From positions 261,596 to 325,595 of the forward strand of contig JBAZJU010000001.1 of the NCBI GenBank assembly GCA_041651155.1: DNA of 64,000 nt, written 5' to 3'. The notes below the pieces were generated by a model that saw nothing but the letters and a program-made list of their open reading frames with translations, did no database searches and was not told the origin of the DNA. The translations under genes and the position numbers were made by a program. Shown in pieces: positions 13,829-47,318 of this stretch. This DNA is from Patescibacteria group bacterium (GTDB lineage Bacteria; Patescibacteriota; Patescibacteriia; CAIXNZ01). Within the stretch, counting starts at the first letter, position 1, and each line of letters opens with the position of its first letter.

Positions 13829-15508
13829 ATGAAGAATATTGCGAGATTGATTAAGTCAGTAAAGGCTGCCAACCAGGGCTCTCAAACTCATCCCAATAGG
13901 GAAGGGGCTCCGAGTTTCTATCGGAGTATAAAAGAGCAGGTTGTGCAGATCCTCACCACTGGGACCTTAAGCAACACCTTTTATGCCTCGACCGAGCAAC
14001 TCGGCAGGGAAGCCATAGAGGTTTTGTTGCAGGCAAGGCAAGAGTGTCCGGAATTTTTGGCTAAGGCCGTTGCCTATGCCAGGAATGAGGGACTACTCAA
14101 GTCAATGCCGGTCCTGGGGCTAGCGATGCTCTCCGGAGAGAGAAAGGCCAAGCAATACTTCCAGGCCACTTTTAATCAGGTAGTAAAAACGCCGGATGAT
14201 TTGAGGGCATTTGTACTGCTCTGCAAATCAGGCGTTATACCTGGGCGAAAGGGCTTGGGCGGGATGACTCGTGATGCGGTGGCGAACTGGCTGGGAAATC
14301 TTTCAGAGTATCACACGATGAAATACGGTTCGGCCGTTTCTCGTGAGATTACACTCAGAGATATACTTCGCTTAGCTCACCCCAAACCGCAAAACGAAGC
14401 TCTCTCCGAGCGTTTCGGCTACTTGGTTTCAGGGAAGCGGGCTTTGAGTGCAAACTCTGGTCTTAATCCCCAGATTCGCATGCTGGAAACTTTGAAGCGG
14501 GCGACTACTGAAGAAGAGACGCTGAACCTCGTGCGCGAGGGTAAGCTGCCTTTTGAAGTAGTCATTCCTGCGGTTAAAGCGACCACGCCTGCAATCTGGT
14601 CAGCTCTGCTTCATAACGCGCCCTACTTTAACTTGCTGAGAAATTTGGTGACGTTCACGCGCCATCAGGTTTTTTTAAGCGAGGCAGAGGTAGAGTACGC
14701 TGTGCAGCGGCTGACTGACGCCAGAGCTGTCGAGCGTTCGAAAGTGTTGCCGTTCCGGTACTTCCAGGCCTGGCAGCAGTATGTGGCGATGGAAAATCCA
14801 GACAGCCTGATCGCAGATGCACTGCGACAGGCTTTGGAGCTTTCCTTTGTTAACATGCCATCGCTGGGTTCTTGCCAGATTGCGATCGGTACTGATACTA
14901 GTGGTTCAATGGGCAGTCAGGTCTCTGAAAAGAGCTCGACTCGTTTCATTGATATCGCAGGTATCTTTACCGGTGCATTACTGCGCAAGGCAGAAGGCCG
15001 GGTTATTCCTTTACCTTTCGACACCGAGATCCACATCAACCATGGTCTTTCTGGCCGTGATGAAATACTCACGACTACTGATAAGATCAGCCATTGGTGT
15101 GGCGGTGGCACTGCGGTTGGCGCGCCGATACAGTTCCTACTTGATCGACGGATTTCCGTTGATGTCTTTATTGGCATCACTGATCAGGAGGAATGGGCGT
15201 ATGGCGGCGGATATCCCTGTCGTGGGAGTTTCCTTGACTTGTGGCACGAGTACCGCAAGCAGGTTAACCCTCATTGCAAGGCATATCTGGTAACCATTGC
15301 CCCGTATCGAGACGCGGTTGCACCGCAGGGCGAGGAAGGTATTCGTTTCACCTACGGATGGAACGACAGCGTGCTCGGTTACATTGCCAATGATCTGGCA
15401 GGCGGCGCAAGCCAAATCCAGGCCATTGAGCAAATGGAGCTTGAGTTCGTTGGGGATAACGGTCCGCTTTCCGAGACCGCTAGCGAGGACGCGCAGATTG
15501 AAGATTAA
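13829..15508 (+). CDS. rsr: Ro60-like TROVE-domain protein with C-terminal vWA/MIDAS domain (Rsr ortholog)
   Basis: 559 aa; RBS aaaggagg; helical N-terminal domain, then IAIGTDTSGSMGS (DxSxS MIDAS) as in Ro60/Rsr; G/C-rich codon usage. Confidence 0.7.
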   Translation: MKNIARLIKSVKAANQGSQTHPNREGAPSFYRSIKEQVVQILTTGTLSNTFYASTEQLGREAIEVLLQARQECPEFLAKAVAYARNEGLLKSMPVLGLAMLSGERKAKQYFQATFNQVVKTPDDLRAFVLLCKSGVIPGRKGLGGMTRDAVANWLGNLSEYHTMKYGSAVSREITLRDILRLAHPKPQNEALSERFGYLVSGKRALSANSGLNPQIRMLETLKRATTEEETLNLVREGKLPFEVVIPAVKATTPAIWSALLHNAPYFNLLRNLVTFTRHQVFLSEAEVEYAVQRLTDARAVERSKVLPFRYFQAWQQYVAMENPDSLIADALRQALELSFVNMPSLGSCQIAIGTDTSGSMGSQVSEKSSTRFIDIAGIFTGALLRKAEGRVIPLPFDTEIHINHGLSGRDEILTTTDKISHWCGGGTAVGAPIQFLLDRRISVDVFIGITDQEEWAYGGGYPCRGSFLDLWHEYRKQVNPHCKAYLVTIAPYRDAVAPQGEEGIRFTYGWNDSVLGYIANDLAGGASQIQAIEQMELEFVGDNGPLSETASEDAQIED

Positions 15509-15871
15509 CCATGGGGTTAGTCTTCACTTCCAAATGGAAGTCCCACATCAGACTGCGCGAAGCTCTGTTTCCGCATTGCGGAGATCTTTACCTTTACTGC
15601 GGTTAATGTGATGCCACACGTTTTCTGCGGTTCTGTGTGATGACCAGAGAGCACCCTGGGTCTAAAAGACCGAAACCAATTGTTTAGACTTTAATGTCTG
15701 ACAATTGTCCCAAATGGGATCAGGGATAAATTAAGTGGGAGAACGTAGATTCTTCCAGGGTGACAAAAAGTCACCCTGTTCATTCAAAGCTTGTAAATAC
15801 TTGTAGGTTTTGAAGGTAACATCAGATTTGCTGGTGTTAAAAAGTAAATTGAAAAAATAGGGAGGTGCTAA

Positions 15872-38526: not shown

Positions 38527-38850
38527 TTACGCCTGTGTTTGCAGCAGCCTTAGTTGCTTTCTGCGTTCTCTTTCCCTTTGCCGTTTTTCTTCTTTTTCCA
38601 TTTCAGAAGCTGCTTCCTTAATCGCGGCAATGGTTTTGCCTTGTTTGCCCTGGCCGACGCAAAAGCTGACTTTCAGTGGGTCTTGACCCTCTTTAATCGG
38701 ATTTTTGTGCTTTGGCAGGGTAAAAGGCGGAGGAAGATTAAAGATTTGTCCGCAAAATATGCAGCGTACTTCCTCTTTTTGCGGCGGCACGGGTACGGGT
38801 TTTTGATCGTTTTTTTCCAAAATTCCCTCCTTGGTTGATTTTTTTGCCAC
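38527..38850 (-). CDS. hypothetical Cys-containing basic protein
   Basis: 107 aa; CIFCGQ ... C-terminal Lys/Arg/Glu-rich tail. Confidence 0.35.
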   Translation of the reverse strand: MAKKSTKEGILEKNDQKPVPVPPQKEEVRCIFCGQIFNLPPPFTLPKHKNPIKEGQDPLKVSFCVGQGKQGKTIAAIKEAASEMEKEEKRQRERERRKQLRLLQTQA

Positions 38851-38913
38851 AGTCCCTTTGTAGCGCCTTAATTGTATATAATAATATAAGCGTTTGTCAA
38901 TTTTATTAAATTT

Positions 38914-39132: not shown

Positions 39133-40027
39133 GGGCTTGTATCTGGTTTTGGGCACTGCATTAATTTCAGGCGTTTCGGTTTTTCTTAATAAATTTGCGG
39201 TATCAACAGTCAGTAATTCTGATATTTTTACCACTAGCAAAAATTTGATAGTTGGCATAATTTTAACTGCCTTGATTGTAACTCCTTTTTTGTTTAATAA
39301 GTTAAGAAAAATTGCTAAAGATGATTGGGTAAAATTAGGCCTAATAGGAATTATTGGCGGCAGCGTGCCCTTTCTTTTATTTTTTAAGGGTTTAAGCATG
39401 ACCAGTGCTACTAGCGCTGCATTTATTCATAAAACATTATTTGTTTGGGTCAGTTTATTGGCCATCTGGTTTTTAAAAGAAAAAATAGGCAAATTGCAAT
39501 ATTTGGCTTTGGCTTTATTATTTTTAGGTAATTTAGCGCTGTTAGGCTTTAAATTTTTTAATTATGGCTATGGCGAACTTTTAGTTCTAACTGCGACTTT
39601 GATGTGGACAATTGAATTTGTGATAGCCAAAAAAGTTTTAAAAAATGTTGCCTCAGAGATCGTGGCTTGGGCCAGGATGTTTTTTGGTTCAATGATACTA
39701 CTTGCTTATTTATCAGCTACAGGTCAGATTCATACTCTAGTCTCTTTAAATTTAAACCAATGGATTTGGGTGATAATCAGCTCAGTTTTATTGTTAGGTT
39801 ATGTTTTAACGTGGTATAAGGCTTTGAAATATTTGCCAACGGTAACCGTGACATCAATTCTAGTATTAGCTTCGCCGATTACAACCAGTTTGGAAATTAT
39901 ATCTAGCCATAAGTTTAATATTTATCAAATTGGGGGATCTTGCTTGATTACTTTAGCTTGCATATTAATAATTTATTCTGTAAGGAAAATCAAAGATGTC
40001 CAAGTTAATTCCCCAAAATTCAATTGA
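39116..40027 (+). CDS. EamA/DMT-family transporter
   Basis: 10-TM pattern, duplicated EamA-like halves; start MKKVNKGLYLV. Confidence 0.55.
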   Translation: MKKVNKGLYLVLGTALISGVSVFLNKFAVSTVSNSDIFTTSKNLIVGIILTALIVTPFLFNKLRKIAKDDWVKLGLIGIIGGSVPFLLFFKGLSMTSATSAAFIHKTLFVWVSLLAIWFLKEKIGKLQYLALALLFLGNLALLGFKFFNYGYGELLVLTATLMWTIEFVIAKKVLKNVASEIVAWARMFFGSMILLAYLSATGQIHTLVSLNLNQWIWVIISSVLLLGYVLTWYKALKYLPTVTVTSILVLASPITTSLEIISSHKFNIYQIGGSCLITLACILIIYSVRKIKDVQVNSPKFN

Positions 40028-40775
40028 AGGTGTTTTGCGCTGCGCCAGATATGCATTTATGCCCAATTATTTCGCCTATTGCGGGCCTGATAAAAACAAG
40101 GCGCTCTTTGAGTATTGCAGCCAAAATTATTTTGAGCCGACTTTACAAAATATTTTGTCAGAATTTGAAGTAATGCACCCTTATTTAAAATTAATTGCCA
40201 GAGAAAATAGGATTAAAGATGAATTTGACCCAGAAGTTGTTGAGGCCTATTGGCTTGGCAATAATTTAATTGAGAATGTGCAAATTAAAAAGTTGTACAG
40301 GCATTTTACAGAGGATAAAAATCTAAAAGCAAAATTGCCAACTTCTGTGGCAGAAAAAGTTTTAGGTTTAGCGCCTCAAATGACAAAGCCGCATCATAAT
40401 TTTCATGTCATGAATATCTGGTTGCGCGCCGGTAAGGTAAATATTATGCACACCTTGAAATCAATTGATGAATGCAGGATTTCCTGGGGTAAAATTAAAA
40501 AAATAAAAAAATCATCCATTTTGGTTGATTACAAGCCTTTAATTATAAAAGATGATAAAATAACTTTAGGCGATACATTAGAACGAGAAGTTTTAACCCA
40601 GTTTGCGGATAAAGGATTTGTTAAAGATTTAAAAATCGGGGATATTGTGACAATTCACTGGGGCTGGGTCTGTGAAGTAATTAATAATTCACAATTAAAT
40701 AATTTGCAAAAATATACACAAGAAAGTTTGAATATTTTTAATGAGCAGGGGAAGGAATTTATATGGGGAGGGTGA
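39996..40775 (+). CDS. hypothetical protein
   Basis: 259 aa ORF. Confidence 0.4.
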   Translation: MSKLIPQNSIEGVLRCARYAFMPNYFAYCGPDKNKALFEYCSQNYFEPTLQNILSEFEVMHPYLKLIARENRIKDEFDPEVVEAYWLGNNLIENVQIKKLYRHFTEDKNLKAKLPTSVAEKVLGLAPQMTKPHHNFHVMNIWLRAGKVNIMHTLKSIDECRISWGKIKKIKKSSILVDYKPLIIKDDKITLGDTLEREVLTQFADKGFVKDLKIGDIVTIHWGWVCEVINNSQLNNLQKYTQESLNIFNEQGKEFIWGG

Positions 40776-40842
40776 AGAAGGTAAATTGATAGTAAGACAA
40801 TGGTAAGACAATTGTAAGACAGTGGTAAGACAATGGTAAAAA
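40770..40842. repeat. TTGTAAGACAA-unit element T2 (direct-unit half)
   Basis: tagtaagacaatggtaagacaattgtaagacagtggtaagacaatggtaaa. Confidence 0.6.
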
Positions 40843-40866
40843 AATTATAAAATAAAAACAAAAATC

Positions 40867-41250
40867 ATGGAATTAAATAATTTGGAAATCTATAAATTGG
40901 CTGTGGAAATTGCCGAAGAATGCTGGCCAATATATTCAGAATTTGATTGGCAAACCAAGAAGTTGATGGGCGATCAATGGATGCGGGCGGTTGATTCTAT
41001 GGGAGCTAATATTTCTGAAGCAAATGGCCGTTATCATTTTTTGGACAGAAATAGATTTTATTACGTCGCTCGCGGTTCTTTAAAGGAGTCTGTCCATTGG
41101 ACTAATACTTTATATAAACGTGAAAAACTTACTGAAATGCGATATAACTCAATATTTGGGAAGCTTAAGAATTTGGATGTAAAATTAAATAATGCGATAA
41201 CTTCTACCTATAAGACGAAACAAGACGAAGGGCAACGGAATCGTTTGTAA
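40867..41250 (+). CDS. four-helix-bundle protein (23S-IVS protein family)
   Basis: AVDSMGANISEANGRYHFLDRNRFYYVARGSLKESVHW signature; flanked by T2 and T3. Confidence 0.6.
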   Translation: MELNNLEIYKLAVEIAEECWPIYSEFDWQTKKLMGDQWMRAVDSMGANISEANGRYHFLDRNRFYYVARGSLKESVHWTNTLYKREKLTEMRYNSIFGKLKNLDVKLNNAITSTYKTKQDEGQRNRL

Positions 41251-41350
41251 GACGATTGTAAGACTATTGTAAGACAATGGTAAGGCAGCTGTAAGATCGT
41301 GGTAAAACAATTGTATTACAATATATTACCATGGTATTACAATCGTTTTA
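41241..41350. repeat. TTGTAAGACAA-unit palindromic element T3
   Basis: tgtaagacgattgtaagactattgtaagacaatggtaagg...caattgtattacaatatattaccatggtattacaatcg. Confidence 0.6.
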
Positions 41351-41374
41351 TTCGCCTAATTCCAAGCAAACATT

Positions 41375-42157
41375 ATGAAGTCAAAAAACAGATTAAAACC
41401 CCACGTCGCCATCTTCGGACTAACAAGCTGTGAAGGTTGTCAATTCTCTCTCTTGGATTTGCATGAGAAATTTTTAGAATTAACCAGCTATATTGAATTG
41501 GATGAATTTAGATTAATTGAGGATGAAAAAGAACGCTCACATTATGATATTGCTTTTATTGAAGGCAATCCTGTGACCACGGAGAATTTGCATATTTTAA
41601 AACGCATTAGGAAAATTTCAGATGTGGTGGTTGTTTTAGGCAACTGCGCTGATTTAGGCGGGGTTTGGGAAATAAAAAATTACCATGATTTTAAAAAAAT
41701 AGGCTGTTATGTTTACAAATCATGCAAGACAATTGAAAATAGGGAAGTAGTAGAAGTGCCCAAGGCCATTAAGGTTGATTATGTAATTCCTGGCTGCCCG
41801 ATTAATGCCCAGAATTTTTTAGATTTGGTATATAATCTTATAAACAAAAAACCCTGGGCTTTGAAGATGAATCCGGTTTGCTGGGAATGCCAGATTAATA
41901 AAAACCCTTGCCTTTTGCAGGAAGGGAAGATTTGTCTGGGGCCAATTGCTTTAGCTGGCTGTAATGCAGTCTGTTTGAATTCGCGTCAGGAATGCTGGGC
42001 GTGCCGGGGAATTTTAGATCAATCAGATGAGAAAATCAGGAATTTGATTAAGATTTTACAAAATCATGGTTATAGCCTGGCTGATATTTTAGAGAAAATG
42101 GAATTTTTTGGAGCACGAGATAGAATTGAAGCTGCCATGAAAAAGGCAAATGACTGA
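41375..42157 (+). CDS. hydD: [NiFe] hydrogenase small (delta) subunit-like
   Basis: N-terminal GLTSCEGCQFSLLDL, GNCADLGG; multiple Cys clusters; 260 aa. Confidence 0.65.
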   Translation: MKSKNRLKPHVAIFGLTSCEGCQFSLLDLHEKFLELTSYIELDEFRLIEDEKERSHYDIAFIEGNPVTTENLHILKRIRKISDVVVVLGNCADLGGVWEIKNYHDFKKIGCYVYKSCKTIENREVVEVPKAIKVDYVIPGCPINAQNFLDLVYNLINKKPWALKMNPVCWECQINKNPCLLQEGKICLGPIALAGCNAVCLNSRQECWACRGILDQSDEKIRNLIKILQNHGYSLADILEKMEFFGARDRIEAAMKKAND

Positions 42158-42211
42158 GGAAATAAAGCTAAGAGACTTGACAATCATTATATTAAATTGT
42201 ATACTCCATTC

Positions 42212-42390
42212 GCGGAACAAACTGCAGCCCAAAAAGCGGCATACGGGAAGCTGTATAAGTTTCGCAACCCTCCTTTTGTAGCGCTGAGTCCTAGGTCTCG
42301 GGAAATGACTGTCGCCCAACAGTCATATATCAGGGCGGGCTCAGCGCTGAAAACTCTGGGGGAACATTAATTGTTCCCCCTTTTAAATTT
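42212..42390 (+). ncRNA. candidate sRNA unit 1 (own promoter TTGACA-N17-TATACT at 42177-42205; intrinsic terminator 42358-42390)
   Basis: promoter and gggggaacattaattgttccccc+TTTT terminator read directly; structured core gcgctgag...atgactgt/acagtcat...ctcagcgc. Confidence 0.45.
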
Positions 42391-42456
42391 CTTATGTTAA
42401 AACTTGCTTGGAAGCGTCTTATTGACAAAGTTTCCAAAATGTATATAATTTAGATG

Positions 42457-42592
42457 AAGCCTGTTGTCACTGCAGGCTTCTCCTCAAAGCGCTGAGCTTA
42501 GATCTCGGGTATGACTGCTACCGTCACATATTCAGGCTGGGCTCAGAGCAAGCAAATTCGGGAGAGCGTATTATCGCTCTCCCTTTTAAATT
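42457..42592 (+). ncRNA. candidate sRNA unit 2, paralogous to unit 1 (promoter TTGACA-N16-TATAAT at 42423-42450; terminator 42560-42592)
   Basis: shares about 65-nt conserved core and identical TTTTAAATT tail with unit 1; 5' hairpin gaagcctg/caggcttc. Confidence 0.45.
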
Positions 42593-42607
42593 ATTAAAAA
42601 AGAAAAA

Positions 42608-42636
42608 GGCGAGATTGCTCTCGCCCTTTTATTTTT
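42608..42636. terminator. bidirectional terminator (ggcgagattgctctcgcc flanked by A/T runs)
   Basis: hairpin with T-run on both strands; follows minus-strand gene 42647-43099. Confidence 0.5.
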
Positions 42637-42646
42637 TAGTTCTTAG

Positions 42647-43099
42647 CTATGCCGCTAATGTTTTTCTGGTTGATTTTCCTTCTTTGAAGGCTTGTAACGA
42701 GCTAAGAAGATTTTCCCTTATTTGCCAGTTGCTTTTGTCTGCCATTTCAATGGCTTTGCCAGTTTGAACGATAAGCGCGGCTACTTGTTCTTCAAGTGAT
42801 CGCTCAGCTGGAAAACGTTTGGCATAAGGGCCGGGAATTTCGTTGTCGTGGTCTGTCCCGCAATTGCATGTTCCACCATCATCGATAAACGAGCCGCATC
42901 TAGCGCATCGATTACCGAATCGACCAGGATATGATGCCCGGTTGAATTCGATGAGGAAGGGTTTTTCGCCGATAAATTCTGCAAGAGCATTAAATACCGG
43001 CTGGGTTTGATGTTTACACCGAGTCCCTCTCTGGAGCAAGGAAATGGCGCAGGCACATAAGGTGCCTAACTTTTCCGCGTGGTTGGTCGCAGCAACCAT
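42647..43099 (-). CDS. hypothetical Cys-rich protein
   Basis: 150 aa; CARCGSFIDDGGTCNCGTDHD cluster; G/C-rich codons. Confidence 0.45.
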   Translation of the reverse strand: MVAATNHAEKLGTLCACAISLLQRGTRCKHQTQPVFNALAEFIGEKPFLIEFNRASYPGRFGNRCARCGSFIDDGGTCNCGTDHDNEIPGPYAKRFPAERSLEEQVAALIVQTGKAIEMADKSNWQIRENLLSSLQAFKEGKSTRKTLAA

Positions 43100-43333
43100 T
43101 TTAAATACCTCCGGTTTGTTGTTAATGTTTTTCTTTTGCTAATGGTATTAGCACTAGCAAAGAGCTTCTTTGCTTTTATCATAATAATTACTTAAAATTT
43201 TGTCAAATTTGGGTTTTTAAAGATTTTTGGTATAATGTTTATAGAATAAAGCAGTAAGAATTTAGAATATAGAAGAAATTCGTAATTGTTGTATTCTTTG
43301 TTCTATATTCTTAATTCTTAATTCTAAAAAAAT

Positions 43334-43561
43334 ATGACTGAATTTTTATCATTTGACTTGCAAACAGCTTACAATGAAATCAAAAAACGCGCTGAAGAGG
43401 CGCCAGTGACTAATAAAGAGGCCTGGGATGAAATGGTTGATGATTATATTACTGAAAGGTTAGAAGTTGGGGAATTAGATTTGGATAATGACAGCCAGGG
43501 GATGATTGAAGAACTAAAGTCAATGTGGTCTGAATATGAAAAAAATCTGAATATAAGATAA
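43334..43561 (+). CDS. hypothetical small acidic protein
   Basis: 75 aa ORF. Confidence 0.35.
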   Translation: MTEFLSFDLQTAYNEIKKRAEEAPVTNKEAWDEMVDDYITERLEVGELDLDNDSQGMIEELKSMWSEYEKNLNIR

Positions 43562-43612
43562 CAGAACCACGAAATTTTATCACTAAATAACACGAAAATT
43601 AATTTAATGTAA

Positions 43613-44851
43613 ATGAACAAGTGGTTAAAAATTTTAGTTATTGTTTTTGTCATTCTTGCCATCGGGCTAGCTGGTATTGTTATTTATTTTTATCCGCAGA
43701 TTGGGCCGGCTTTTGGTCAGCCAGTGGCAGATGTGAGTAAATTATTAAATGCGAATAATAATACGAATGTAAATAATAATGCGAATATTGCGAATGATGC
43801 GAATGTCGCGAATGTGGTTCCGGAAGTTATAACGCCAACTGTTCAGGGTCCATTTACGATTTTGGGTAATTTTAAAATTGATGTATTTGCCAAGGATTTG
43901 AATACGCCAAGAGTATTGCTTTTTGATGATCAAGGTAGTTTGCTGGTTTCAGCCATGGGCGAGGGCAAGGTTTATGCAATTAAATCCGATGGCTCAAAAG
44001 TTGTCATAGCTTCAGGTTTGAATAATCCGCATGGTCTGGCCATTGATAACGGTTATTTATATATTGCTGAAACAAACAAAGTCAGCCGTTATACTTATGA
44101 TTCAGCCAACTTAAAATTAGGCAATAAAGAATTTTTGTTTAATTTGCCAAGCGGAAGCGGACATTTTACCAGAACATTGCAATTTGGCCCCAATGGATTT
44201 TTATATGTGTCAGTTGGCTCATCCTGCAATGTTTGCCATGAAACTGATGAGCGCAGAGCTACGATTTTAAAATATGACCCGTCCAATTGGTCTTATGAAA
44301 TTTTTGCTAAAGGCTTGAGAAATACTGTTTTCTTTATTTTAAATCCCAGGACCAAGCAGTTTTGGGGCAATGATATGGGGCGTGACAATTTGGGCGATAA
44401 TTTGCCGCCAGATGAATTTAATATTTTAAGTGCTGGCAAAAATTATGGCTGGCCAATTTGTTATGGCCAGAAAATTAATGATCGCAATTTTGATAAAAAT
44501 GTTTATATCCGTGATCCTTGCGCTGATTCAGTGGCACCGATTTATGAATATGGCGCGCATAATGCGCCGCTTGGCCTAACTTTCATTGATTCAAAAAAGT
44601 TCCCAGCAAGTTGGCAAGGAGATTTACTTGTAGCATTACATGGTTCCTGGAATAGTTCAGTACCAGTTGGTTATAAAGTTGTGCATTTGAAAATTGATGG
44701 CAATAAAGTTGTCAGCTCTGAAGATTTTATAACTGGATTTTTAACTTCAGCTGGAGTAATTGGCAGGCCTGTTGATTTGGTGTTTGGGAAAGATGGTGCG
44801 CTTTACCTCTCTGATGACAAAGCAGGGGTAATTTATCGGATTTATCGGTAA
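43613..44851 (+). CDS. PQQ-dependent sugar (glucose/sorbosone) dehydrogenase-like beta-propeller protein, membrane-anchored
   Basis: N-terminal TM, Asn-rich linker, then NNPHGLAID...KNYGWPICYG family blocks. Confidence 0.55.
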   Translation: MNKWLKILVIVFVILAIGLAGIVIYFYPQIGPAFGQPVADVSKLLNANNNTNVNNNANIANDANVANVVPEVITPTVQGPFTILGNFKIDVFAKDLNTPRVLLFDDQGSLLVSAMGEGKVYAIKSDGSKVVIASGLNNPHGLAIDNGYLYIAETNKVSRYTYDSANLKLGNKEFLFNLPSGSGHFTRTLQFGPNGFLYVSVGSSCNVCHETDERRATILKYDPSNWSYEIFAKGLRNTVFFILNPRTKQFWGNDMGRDNLGDNLPPDEFNILSAGKNYGWPICYGQKINDRNFDKNVYIRDPCADSVAPIYEYGAHNAPLGLTFIDSKKFPASWQGDLLVALHGSWNSSVPVGYKVVHLKIDGNKVVSSEDFITGFLTSAGVIGRPVDLVFGKDGALYLSDDKAGVIYRIYR

Positions 44852-44855
44852 TAAG

Positions 44856-44940
44856 ATGATTGTAAAACAATGGTAATATGGTGGTAAGACAGTGGTAAAA
44901 CAATTGTATTACAATATCTTACAACTGTCTTACAATCGTC
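44856..44940. repeat. TTGTAAGACAA-unit palindromic element T4
   Basis: gattgtaaaacaatggtaatatggtggtaagacagtggtaaaacaa|ttgtattacaatatcttacaactgtcttacaatcgtc. Confidence 0.6.
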
Positions 44941-45045
44941 CATCCCTTGACATTTTTATAAAAATGAACTAAGCTAAAATATCAAGAGTTCTTTAAGGCA
45001 TCAGTTTATACTTAATTCTAAACAAAGTAAATAAGGAGGTAAATA

Positions 45046-46049: not shown

Positions 46050-47318
46050 ATGTCAAAAACAAAAACAATTAAAATCAACCACATTGCCAAAATGGAAGGG
46101 CATACTGGATTTGTGGCTTCAATTTTGGAAGGAGATGTGATAAAGGCGAAATTGGAAACATTAGAAGGCGCGCGTTTGATTGAGGGCATACTTTTGGGTC
46201 GGGATTATTTTGAAGTGCCCATGATTACTGCCAGAATCTGCGGCATTTGTCCGATTGTGCATTTTCTTTCAGCCACGCATGCGATTGAACATGCTTTTGG
46301 CATTAAAGTTTCCAGCCAGACCATTGCTTTGCGCAAAGTCATGGAACTTTTGCAGATAATCCATTCCCATTCTTTGCACATGTTTTTTCTGTCTTTGCCT
46401 GATTTTTTTGGCATTGAAAATGATTTGAATTTTATAAAAAAATATCCCAAAGAAACCCAGGCGACTTTGCGAGTGCGCCAATTTGCTATAAGTATGGTTG
46501 AATTAATTGGTGGACGTATTGTTCATCCTTTAACCATTGAAGTCGGCGGGTTTAAAAAATTGCCATCTATTCAGGAAGTAAATAAATTATTGAAAAATTA
46601 CAATTCTCTTTTGGCTGATGCGATTTTTATTGCTGAATTTGCGCGCAAAATAAAATATCCAAAATTTAGCCGGGAAACAGAATTTATTGCCCTGGATAAT
46701 AAAAAAGAATATGAAATTTTATGGGGTGACATTATAACCAGTAAGGGGAAAAAATATACTGTTAAAGAATTTCAGCATAAGATCAAGGAATTTCACCAGC
46801 CGTTTGAAAATGTTAAAAGAGTAAGTTTGGATAAAGAGCCTTATTTTACCGGTGCTTTGGCGCGTATAAATTTGAATCATGATAAATTAAATCCCCAGGC
46901 TAAAAAACTCTGGCTGGAGGCAAAACAAAAAATGCCTTGTTATAATACTTTTTATAATGTCTATGCCCAAGCAGTGGAAATCGTCCATTGTCTGGAAGAA
47001 ATTAATAAAATTTTTAAACAACTGGGTAAAATTGACCAGAAAAATATTAAAGTTAAGGTTAAGCCCAAAGCAGGCGTGGGTTATGGCGCGGTTGAAGCGC
47101 CGCGGGGAATTTTACTGGATTATTATAAATTTGATAAAAATGGCAAAGTTCTTGAGGCCAATGTGATTACGCCCACGGCGCAATTTTTGGCCAATTTAGA
47201 AGCTGACTTAAAAGCATATTTGCCCAATGTTTATAAATTGCCGGTTCATGAGCGCAGGATAAAAATTAGGGCTTTGATTCGGGCGTATGATCCGTGCATC
47301 TCTTGTGCGACACACTAA
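46050..47318 (+). CDS. hydA: [NiFe] hydrogenase large (alpha) subunit
   Basis: N-terminal RICGICP and C-terminal DPCISCATH nickel-binding motifs; 422 aa. Confidence 0.8.
   Translation: MSKTKTIKINHIAKMEGHTGFVASILEGDVIKAKLETLEGARLIEGILLGRDYFEVPMITARICGICPIVHFLSATHAIEHAFGIKVSSQTIALRKVMELLQIIHSHSLHMFFLSLPDFFGIENDLNFIKKYPKETQATLRVRQFAISMVELIGGRIVHPLTIEVGGFKKLPSIQEVNKLLKNYNSLLADAIFIAEFARKIKYPKFSRETEFIALDNKKEYEILWGDIITSKGKKYTVKEFQHKIKEFHQPFENVKRVSLDKEPYFTGALARINLNHDKLNPQAKKLWLEAKQKMPCYNTFYNVYAQAVEIVHCLEEINKIFKQLGKIDQKNIKVKVKPKAGVGYGAVEAPRGILLDYYKFDKNGKVLEANVITPTAQFLANLEADLKAYLPNVYKLPVHERRIKIRALIRAYDPCISCATH

Follow-up and report, generated by a model that had tools for sequence, protein, structure and literature searches.

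Putative sibling small RNA genes with an anti-Shine-Dalgarno-like seed downstream of hydD in a member of the Patescibacteria

Two promoter-to-terminator units downstream of hydD

The window analysed here is a stretch of 64,000 nucleotides (nt) from the genome of a Patescibacteria group bacterium (contig JBAZJU010000001.1, positions 261,596 to 325,595; guanine plus cytosine (GC) content approximately 36%), in which two adjacent units, each equipped with a promoter and an intrinsic terminator on the + strand, directly follow hydD, the gene of a group-3 [NiFe]-hydrogenase small/delta subunit (41375-42157, +; Pfam PF01058). The best explanation of their sequence features is that the units are independently transcribed genes, with predicted RNAs of approximately 175 nt (unit 1) and 135 nt (unit 2). 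The top NCBIfam match of the hydD product is sulfhyd_HydD, with a score under the family cutoff. An identical protein is encoded on a 293-kb metagenome contig in the ENA, and the homologues of the protein carry the names Candidatus Buchananbacteria, Parcubacteria or Patescibacteria.

The promoter of unit 1, TTGACA-N17-TATACT (-35 box at 42177-42182 and -10 box at 42200-42205, +), matches the consensus at 11 of 12 positions, and the promoter of unit 2, TTGACA-N16-TATAAT (42422-42449, +), matches it at all 12; the original prediction had recognized both as sigma70-like and had placed the second one nucleotide too far downstream, at 42423-42450. A consensus scan of positions 40000-45000 returns three sites with at least 11 matches, namely these two promoters and a site on the - strand (43206-43178) approximately 80 nt upstream of the adjacent minus-strand gene. 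The orthologous unit in a close relative (locus L089) likewise has a TTGACA-N17-TATACT promoter.

The predicted RNA of unit 1 (+ strand) begins at +1 with a 5' domain closed by GCGGAAC/GUUUCGC (42212-42265), followed by a linker (42266-42279) that holds the unpaired CU-rich seed CCCUCCUUUU (42268-42277, mean unpaired probability 0.93), a central hairpin (42281-42347) with the base GCGCUGAG/CUCAGCGC and the inner hairpin AUGACUGU/ACAGUCAU, and an intrinsic terminator (42358-42389) made of the stem GGGGGAACAUUAAUUGUUCCCCC (42358-42380) and a UUUUAAAUU tail. The predicted RNA of unit 2 (+ strand) begins at +1 with the hairpin GAAGCCUG(U)...CAGGCUUC (42456-42480), which leads into the CU-rich seed region CUUCUCCUCAAA (42477-42488, mean unpaired probability 0.80; CUUCUCCUC, the CU-rich stretch 5' of the conserved core, is at 42477-42485 and the unpaired UCCUCAAA at 42481-42488), then the central hairpin GCGCUGAG...CUCAGAGC (42489-42549) and a terminator (42560-42592) made of the stem GGGAGAGCGUAUUAUCGCUCUCCC (42560-42583) and a UUUUAAAUU tail. 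Both folds have the same four parts: 5' hairpin, unpaired CU-rich linker, long central hairpin and terminator. Folded between the predicted +1 and the U-tract, unit 1 has a minimum free energy (MFE) of -73.0 kcal/mol (z = -6.15) and unit 2 one of -60.3 kcal/mol (z = -5.94), and in each case none of 200 shuffled sequences folds as well.

The conserved core of about 65 nt that had been described from the two units aligns over 69 columns, of which 51 are identical and 8 gapped, giving 84% identity over ungapped columns. The outer stem and inner hairpin attributed to this core fold as claimed, with one mismatch in the outer stem of unit 2, and both terminators are in place, each followed by the identical TTTTAAATT. 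The original prediction was correct about the core hairpin and the terminator as parts of each unit and overlooked the 5' hairpin and the CU-rich stretch upstream of the core. A pattern search for the core finds no other occurrence in the 64 kb, and a covariance model of the family, run on the window with filters off, matches only units 1 and 2.

Homologous units in related genomes and the setting of the locus

Related loci were fetched through HydD, and 18 units from nine loci, the window included, were aligned. The close relatives (HydD 88-94% identical; loci L009, L089, L090, L091, L093, L106, L109 and L158) carry one to three family units in tandem directly 3' of hydD; the tandem pair of the window, correctly described as such, is one instance of an array of one to three units that varies in copy number. 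Searches with blastn of the units against the syntenic loci align terminators only, even at 94% HydD identity, and homology was recovered by reading the intergenic regions after hydD and with a covariance model (R1). All 18 units follow one plan: a promoter of their own, then from +1 a 5' hairpin that varies between units, the stretch (A)CCCCUCCUUUU(G) in unpaired form, a long hairpin whose base (GCGCUGGGCC/GGCCCAGCGC) is conserved in sequence and whose interior is hypervariable, and a terminator. In 18 of 18 units a TTGAC -35 box and a hexamer resembling a -10 box are suitably spaced from the 5' hairpin, and the promoters are near-consensus in the type-A units, the window units and those of L089. 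Fifteen units end in a G+C hairpin and a U-run; L091_u2 and L158_u2 lack a separate terminator hairpin downstream of the central one, and L093_u2 has a U-rich run directly after its central hairpin. Within arrays the terminator tail leads straight into the -35 box of the next unit (TTTAAATTTGACA, CCCTTTTAAATTTGACA), which accounts for the TTTTAAATT common to both window units.

In the central stem base and terminator helices of the 18 units, pairing is kept in 98.4% of cells, and two-sided compensatory changes occur in 8 of the 19 pairs. The covariation score is 0.221, compared to 0.111 +/- 0.011 in shuffled alignments (0 of 500 shuffles reach it), and control alignments slid out of register are only 37-51% paired. 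The terminator helix covaries, with two-sided changes in five of nine pairs; three of the ten pairs of the stem base never vary and most of the others are nearly invariant. The type-A 5' hairpin has 12 of 12 base pairs intact in five units from five genomes; variation in six of these pairs is one-sided, through G-U/A-U or U-G/C-G, and the alignment of type-A units has 37 pairs, 7 of them compensatory. The one-sided changes in this hairpin fit only the + strand, and the scores of the covariance model point to the same strand: R1 gives the units 47-132 bits on the + strand (91.2 and 90.7 bits for the window units) and 31 bits or less on the - strand. Promoters, terminators, homologues, covariation and the strand of the wobble pairs all agree with what had been proposed from the letters of the window, that the units are paralogous genes for non-coding small RNAs (sRNAs).

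More distant relatives (HydD 79-89% identical) have one promoter-RNA-terminator module at the same position, without BLAST alignment to the window units. A C-rich motif of the CCCUCC type is kept in such diverged positional homologues at L010, L011, L019, L095, L004, L012, L008 and L005, and lies in the linker at L010, L011, L019, L095 and L008. Four of these loci (L010, L011, L019 and L095, termed subfamily B) share a 5'-domain motif with unit 1 and L089_u1: the motif is GCAUACGGGAAGC in the latter two, and close variants of it (GCGUACGGGAAGC, GCGAAUGGGGAAGC) occur in subfamily B. The covariance model detects L008, L019, L095 and L010 weakly, at 18-31 bits. In an RNAalifold consensus of subfamily B the seed pairs with AAGGGU, a conserved sequence of the 3' half; this pairing may reflect either an alternative fold that masks the seed or an artefact of the alignment. 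Relatives at L003, L013, L015, L017, L018, L037, L073, L092 and L094 have no unit at all. Of the 25 strict promoter-to-terminator modules of 60-260 nt in approximately 1 Mb of related loci, 20 contain CCUCC or CUCCU, and only two of these 20 are not units of the close clade located after hydD. The best explanation is a fast-evolving RNA family restricted to a single Buchananbacteria/Parcubacteria-like clade within the Patescibacteria.

Other RNA-like modules were seen near hydD. At L091:1100-1270 a near-consensus promoter precedes the sRNA array and is followed by a different structured RNA that lacks the CCUCC seed and has the hairpins GGUACUUUUUG...CAAAAAGUACC and CUGGGGGCC...GGCCCCCAG. At L072:4765-5403, in a distant member of the Patescibacteria (HydD 46% identical), three promoter-RNA-terminator modules directly follow hydD and have no visible sequence resemblance to the family of the window. 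The position after hydD may be a recurrent site for non-coding RNA genes.

The units appear to evolve by exchange of modules. The central hairpins have interiors of 36-48 nt, which group into discrete types; these types are conserved from genome to genome and are joined to differing 5' hairpins and terminators. Unit 1 combines a 5' domain of the L089_u1 kind (blastn match to L089:3332-3403, 82% identical over 76 nt) with a terminator of the L158_u1/L091_u1 type, and unit 2 has the commoner GGGAGAG terminator, of the type GGGAGAG(U/C)G that 10 of the 16 units outside the window possess. The interior common to units 1 and 2 is not seen elsewhere among the compared units, which points to a lineage-specific duplication or gene conversion.

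No conserved open reading frame (ORF) was found on either strand of the aligned units: ORFs of 15 codons or more occupy other positions and frames and have another sequence in each unit, none has a Shine-Dalgarno (SD) sequence, and the only ATG-initiated ORF in the core is frameshifted between units 1 and 2 by a net indel of 4 nt. A small protein encoded across the core in relatives, which the original prediction had named as the observation that would speak against it, was thus looked for and not found. The statement that the units belong to no recognized RNA family also holds with respect to Rfam 15, which gives no match at the gathering threshold in the window or in 18 homologous loci; at E <= 10, the only Rfam matches in 42100-42700 are sub-threshold and driven by the terminators. 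Neither phages nor plasmids yield a blastn match to the units. A stem-pattern search of IMG/VR returned more than 120 chance palindromic matches, none of which was confirmed by the covariance model; the top match (L211) has 26.5 bits and E = 0.008, with the other strand nearly as good, and the one viral contig that matched a combined seed-plus-stem pattern was rejected by the model. With no confirmed family member in a phage, plasmid or viral contig, a mobile, phage or plasmid origin was rejected. A TIGR-array or CRISPR-like guide array was also rejected, as each unit has its own promoter and terminator and the neighbourhood contains no Nop/Tas-like or Cas gene.

The hydrogenase gene hydA (46050-47318) is located in the same window as hydD, and between them are a convergent Cys-rich ORF of 150 amino acids (aa), a 75-aa ORF, a GSDH-like gene, and ORFs of 98 and 78 aa; no family was assigned to the small ORFs by Pfam and NCBIfam searches. 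The position of the units right after hydD is as originally described; the hydrogenase locus is not, however, one that was recently interrupted. The order hydD, minus-strand ORF, 75-aa ORF, (GSDH-like gene), hydA is repeated among relatives, and therefore the apparent interruption is ancestral for the clade. The Cys-rich ORF (42647-43099, -) is the convergent downstream neighbour of the RNA genes and lies outside them, with its own terminator at 42603-42630; it has a GGAGG SD and the motif CARCGSFIDDGGTCNCG, and neither a Pfam or NCBIfam family nor a relative in the PDB was found for it. In sequences read by eye and not aligned, a minus-strand Cys-rich ORF converges on hydD both in relatives that carry the sRNAs and in relatives that do not, and L003, L018 and L037 have such an ORF after hydD without the RNA. 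Upstream of hydD, between it and a 23S-IVP-like gene, positions 41245-41350 contain four copies of a 22-nt direct repeat built on TTGTAAGAC, the first three spaced by 11 nt, which overlap an imperfect inverted repeat of 32 nt and may serve hydD as an operator or regulatory array. A similar TTAC-rich repeat is found 3' of hydD at L108.

The seed and its complements

The seed consensus (A)CCCCUCCUUUU(G) lies 5' of the central stem, always 2-9 nt before it, with a mean unpaired probability of 0.60-1.00 in the 18 units; CCUCC is present in 15 of the 18 and CUCC in all. Unit L109_u2 contains CACCUCCUUU exactly, which is presumed here to be the anti-SD tail of 16S ribosomal RNA (rRNA). The likely functional element is the anti-SD-like stretch just 5' of the core, and the core itself is a structural hairpin. 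The seed of unit 2 is a degenerate version of the family seed.

The host genome appears to be largely SD-independent. Among the 61 window genes of at least 100 aa, 8 (approximately 13%) carry GGAGG at -20 to -4 and 12 carry any 4-mer SD core; the SD-bearing genes mostly have an extended SD, A-rich and then GGAGG. A TATAAT-like hexamer ends 4-13 nt before the ATG in 16 of the 61 genes, compared to 9% at random ATGs, which suggests many leaderless or near-leaderless mRNAs. As only about 13% of genes have GGAGG and a quarter look leaderless or nearly so, the seed would address an SD-dependent subset of genes. The five longest perfect complements of the unit 1 linker in the 64 kb are 9-11 nt long, and all fall on GGAGG motifs of the SD type with a start codon 5-8 nt further on. 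Of these, at least three are the SDs of called genes, those at 13829 (rsr, 11 nt), 7609 (10 nt) and 33177 (9 nt).

A longer complementarity was noticed between unit 1 (42271-42284) and the 5' end of a minus-strand mRNA (38853-38866), which could form 14 base pairs with a duplex energy of -27 to -29 kcal/mol. The mRNA has a promoter at 38900-38871 (TTGACA at 38900-38895, TACAAT at 38876-38871) and an ORF at 38527-38850. This duplex uses nucleotides of unit 1 that are buried in the central stem, its estimated chance frequency is approximately 0.1-0.2, and no comparable site was found in relatives, so that the pairing is regarded as a lead and not as evidence. The leader of this mRNA also has a strong SD, AAGGAGGG.

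Proposed function, precedents and competing explanations

The units are proposed, with fair but far from complete confidence, to encode sibling trans-acting sRNAs that are transcribed from their own promoters to their own terminators and whose anti-SD seed occludes the ribosome-binding sites (RBSs) of SD-dependent mRNAs. In this proposed mechanism, the 5' hairpin at +1 probably protects the 5' end of the RNA, and the seed would base-pair with extended SD sequences (AAAAGGAGG), compete with the 30S subunit and so block initiation of translation, possibly with subsequent decay of the mRNA. The seed would address a discrete SD-dependent subset and not all genes, and flanking bases and variable hairpin interiors could give each sibling a partly different specificity. 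Because the longest linker complements fall on SD-type motifs, occlusion of the RBSs of an SD-dependent minority is the best-supported model; this mechanism has precedent in LhrC and in ar14/NfeR1.

LhrC of Listeria monocytogenes has four of its copies adjacent to one another. Like the window units, LhrC1-5 are several homologous copies with short transcripts composed of hairpin, single-stranded stretch and terminator. In LhrC, unpaired UCCC/CU-rich motifs pair with the G-rich SD region of lapB and block its translation (PMC4132741), as is proposed for the CU-rich motif of the window units. The differences are that there is no sequence or structure homology between LhrC and the window units and no Rfam match to it at any threshold; that LhrC has three redundant UCCC sites per RNA, whereas the window family has one CCUCC site and a long hairpin with a conserved base; and that LhrC belongs to another phylum and has LisRK as its inducer. 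The sRNA ar14/NfeR1, which like the sibling pair AbcR1/2 is found in alpha-rhizobia, has an ultraconserved unpaired anti-SD motif, CCUCCUCCC, amid variable stems and silences ntrB at the RBS (PMC10746234). Its likeness to the window family lies in the conservation of the unpaired anti-SD motif while stems diverge in sequence, with silencing of ar14 targets by RBS occlusion, and the family unit L090_u2 reads CCCUCCUCCUUU. NfeR1 differs in having three hairpins, each with an unpaired motif, whereas the window family has one motif in the linker between hairpins; there is no Rfam homology to ar14/NfeR1/AbcR, and the host genome of the window is largely SD-less. RsaE/RoxS of Firmicutes is similar in that its C-rich unpaired motifs target SDs and that it is terminator-bounded and Hfq-independent (see also the discussion in PMC4132741). 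The RsaE match in the window has 23.6 bits against a gathering score of 79, covers only the terminator of unit 2 and the terminator that follows it, and is not taken as homology. PrrF1/PrrF2, OmrA/B and Qrr1-5 of Proteobacteria, tandem or multicopy sibling sRNAs, likewise arose by tandem duplication of promoter-to-terminator modules in which the seed is kept and the rest diverges; they differ from the window units in being Hfq-dependent, with other seeds and unrelated sequence. The resemblance to LhrC, RsaE and ar14 is functional, residing in a CU-rich unpaired anti-SD motif, and not homologous.

Several observations weigh against RBS occlusion by the seed. Unit 2, L091_u2 and L158_u2 have CUCCU only, without the full CCUCC, and among the diverged homologues the CCCUCC-type motif of L004 and L012 is in a hairpin loop and partly paired in the MFE fold, and that of L005 is partly paired as well. 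The equation of the seed with the anti-SD tail is drawn from the general sequence of 16S rRNA and is presumed for the host. No specific conserved target was found in the available DNA (the 64-kb window and the loci of the relatives), and because the seed complements any strong SD, target prediction within 64 kb is not discriminating. A pure seed model also leaves unexplained the conserved stem base GCGCUGGGCC and the conserved interior types, which may indicate protein binding.

A bolder form of the anti-SD proposal, which is possible and no better than that, is that the array consists of mimics of the 16S tail that act as a global switch for SD-dependent translation in a mostly SD-less or leaderless bacterium of the Candidate Phyla Radiation (CPR). 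If this were true, the siblings would contest the few extended AAAAGGAGG sites, that of the RNA quality-control gene rsr among them, with ribosomes and would shift a whole SD regulon up or down together; the dose would depend on copy number (one to three), and further targets, particular to each sibling, would come from the hypervariable hairpin interiors. The translatome would then be partitioned by mechanism of initiation and not by pathway.

A less probable rival reading is that the units are protein-binding or sponge RNAs, which would titrate or guide an RNA-binding protein at the stem base GCGCUGGGCC/GGCCCAGCGC, at the C-rich strand, or at both, so that CCUCC would be a protein site (for example, for a KhpA/B-type KH-domain protein that binds poly(C)) and not an mRNA seed. 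The stem base is conserved in sequence beyond what pairing requires, with its three invariant pairs; the conservation of interior types between genomes implies constraint; and multi-copy arrays are typical of titrating RNAs such as CsrB/C and RsmX/Y/Z. However, no candidate partner protein is linked to the locus, where the neighbouring ORFs have no family; each RNA has a single C-rich site, compared to the many repeated sites of sponge RNAs; and the motif equals the anti-SD, with SDs as its top complements.

It is unlikely that the units are cis elements of the hydD transcript, that is, 3' untranslated region stabilizers, stacked terminators or insulators with incidental promoters and no function in trans. 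The position after hydD is conserved, and the window has no terminator between hydD and unit 1, which makes read-through into unit 1 likely. On the other hand, every unit has its -35 box and -10-like hexamer; hydD has its own terminator before the unit in L009, L010, L011, L019 and L095; many relatives have hydD and no unit; and neither an unpaired seed nor a 5' hairpin at +1 is needed for termination.

Still more doubtful is that the units act in the manner of Y RNAs, as partners of a Ro60/Rsr orthologue whose gene lies 27 kb upstream in the window (13829-15508, +); this orthologue has TROVE and Ro60 vWA domains and a weak NCBIfam Rsr match. Bacterial Y RNAs can be multi-copy, with a conserved stem and variable loops, and the SD of rsr is the longest perfect match to the unit 1 seed. 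Yet Y RNAs usually adjoin rsr and have their 5' and 3' ends paired into a Ro-binding stem, whereas in the folds of the units the two ends do not pair with each other and a terminator forms the 3' end; linkage in all relatives is to hydD and not to rsr; and there is no Y_RNA or Yrl match even at E <= 10. A better candidate lies directly after rsr, and the Y-RNA assignment of the units was rejected. The rsr gene itself is in a GC-rich patch (GC 0.50 versus 0.36) with its strong SD inside a hairpin, and the 363-nt intergenic region that follows it (noted at 15509-15790) is highly structured, with a 286-nt stretch at -101 kcal/mol (z = -5.15) and no Rfam match at E <= 0.1; this region is a candidate Y-RNA-like non-coding RNA on the basis of its predicted fold.

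The least probable explanation, that each unit codes for a small protein or is one copy of a mobile or repetitive element similar to a miniature inverted-repeat transposable element, could appeal to short ORFs in single units (for example, of 21 and 27 codons from ATGACU) and to the tandem repetition, but it is already largely refuted and its small-protein version was rejected, given the inconsistent ORFs described above, core indels that are not multiples of three, marginal matches only (24 bits or less, E >= 0.027) away from the position after hydD in the approximately 1 Mb of related loci, and the lack of terminal inverted repeats or target duplications.

Returning to the proposal of sibling sRNAs with an anti-SD seed, the sequence comparisons describe a new RNA family without an Rfam model that would be of a known type. 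A literature search found no description of regulatory sRNAs in Patescibacteria or the CPR. The mechanism class is familiar, and it is the phylum, the comparative evidence and the SD-poor background that make the case useful. The family is a clean example of rapid sRNA evolution, in which copy number shifts between close genomes while 5' domains, interiors and terminators recombine as modules around the only fixed parts, a seed of approximately 10 nt and the stem base. With GGAGG in about one gene of eight, an anti-SD seed would define a small, testable regulon, and the family would offer a concrete entry into post-transcriptional control in reduced, uncultivated and probably symbiotic bacteria.

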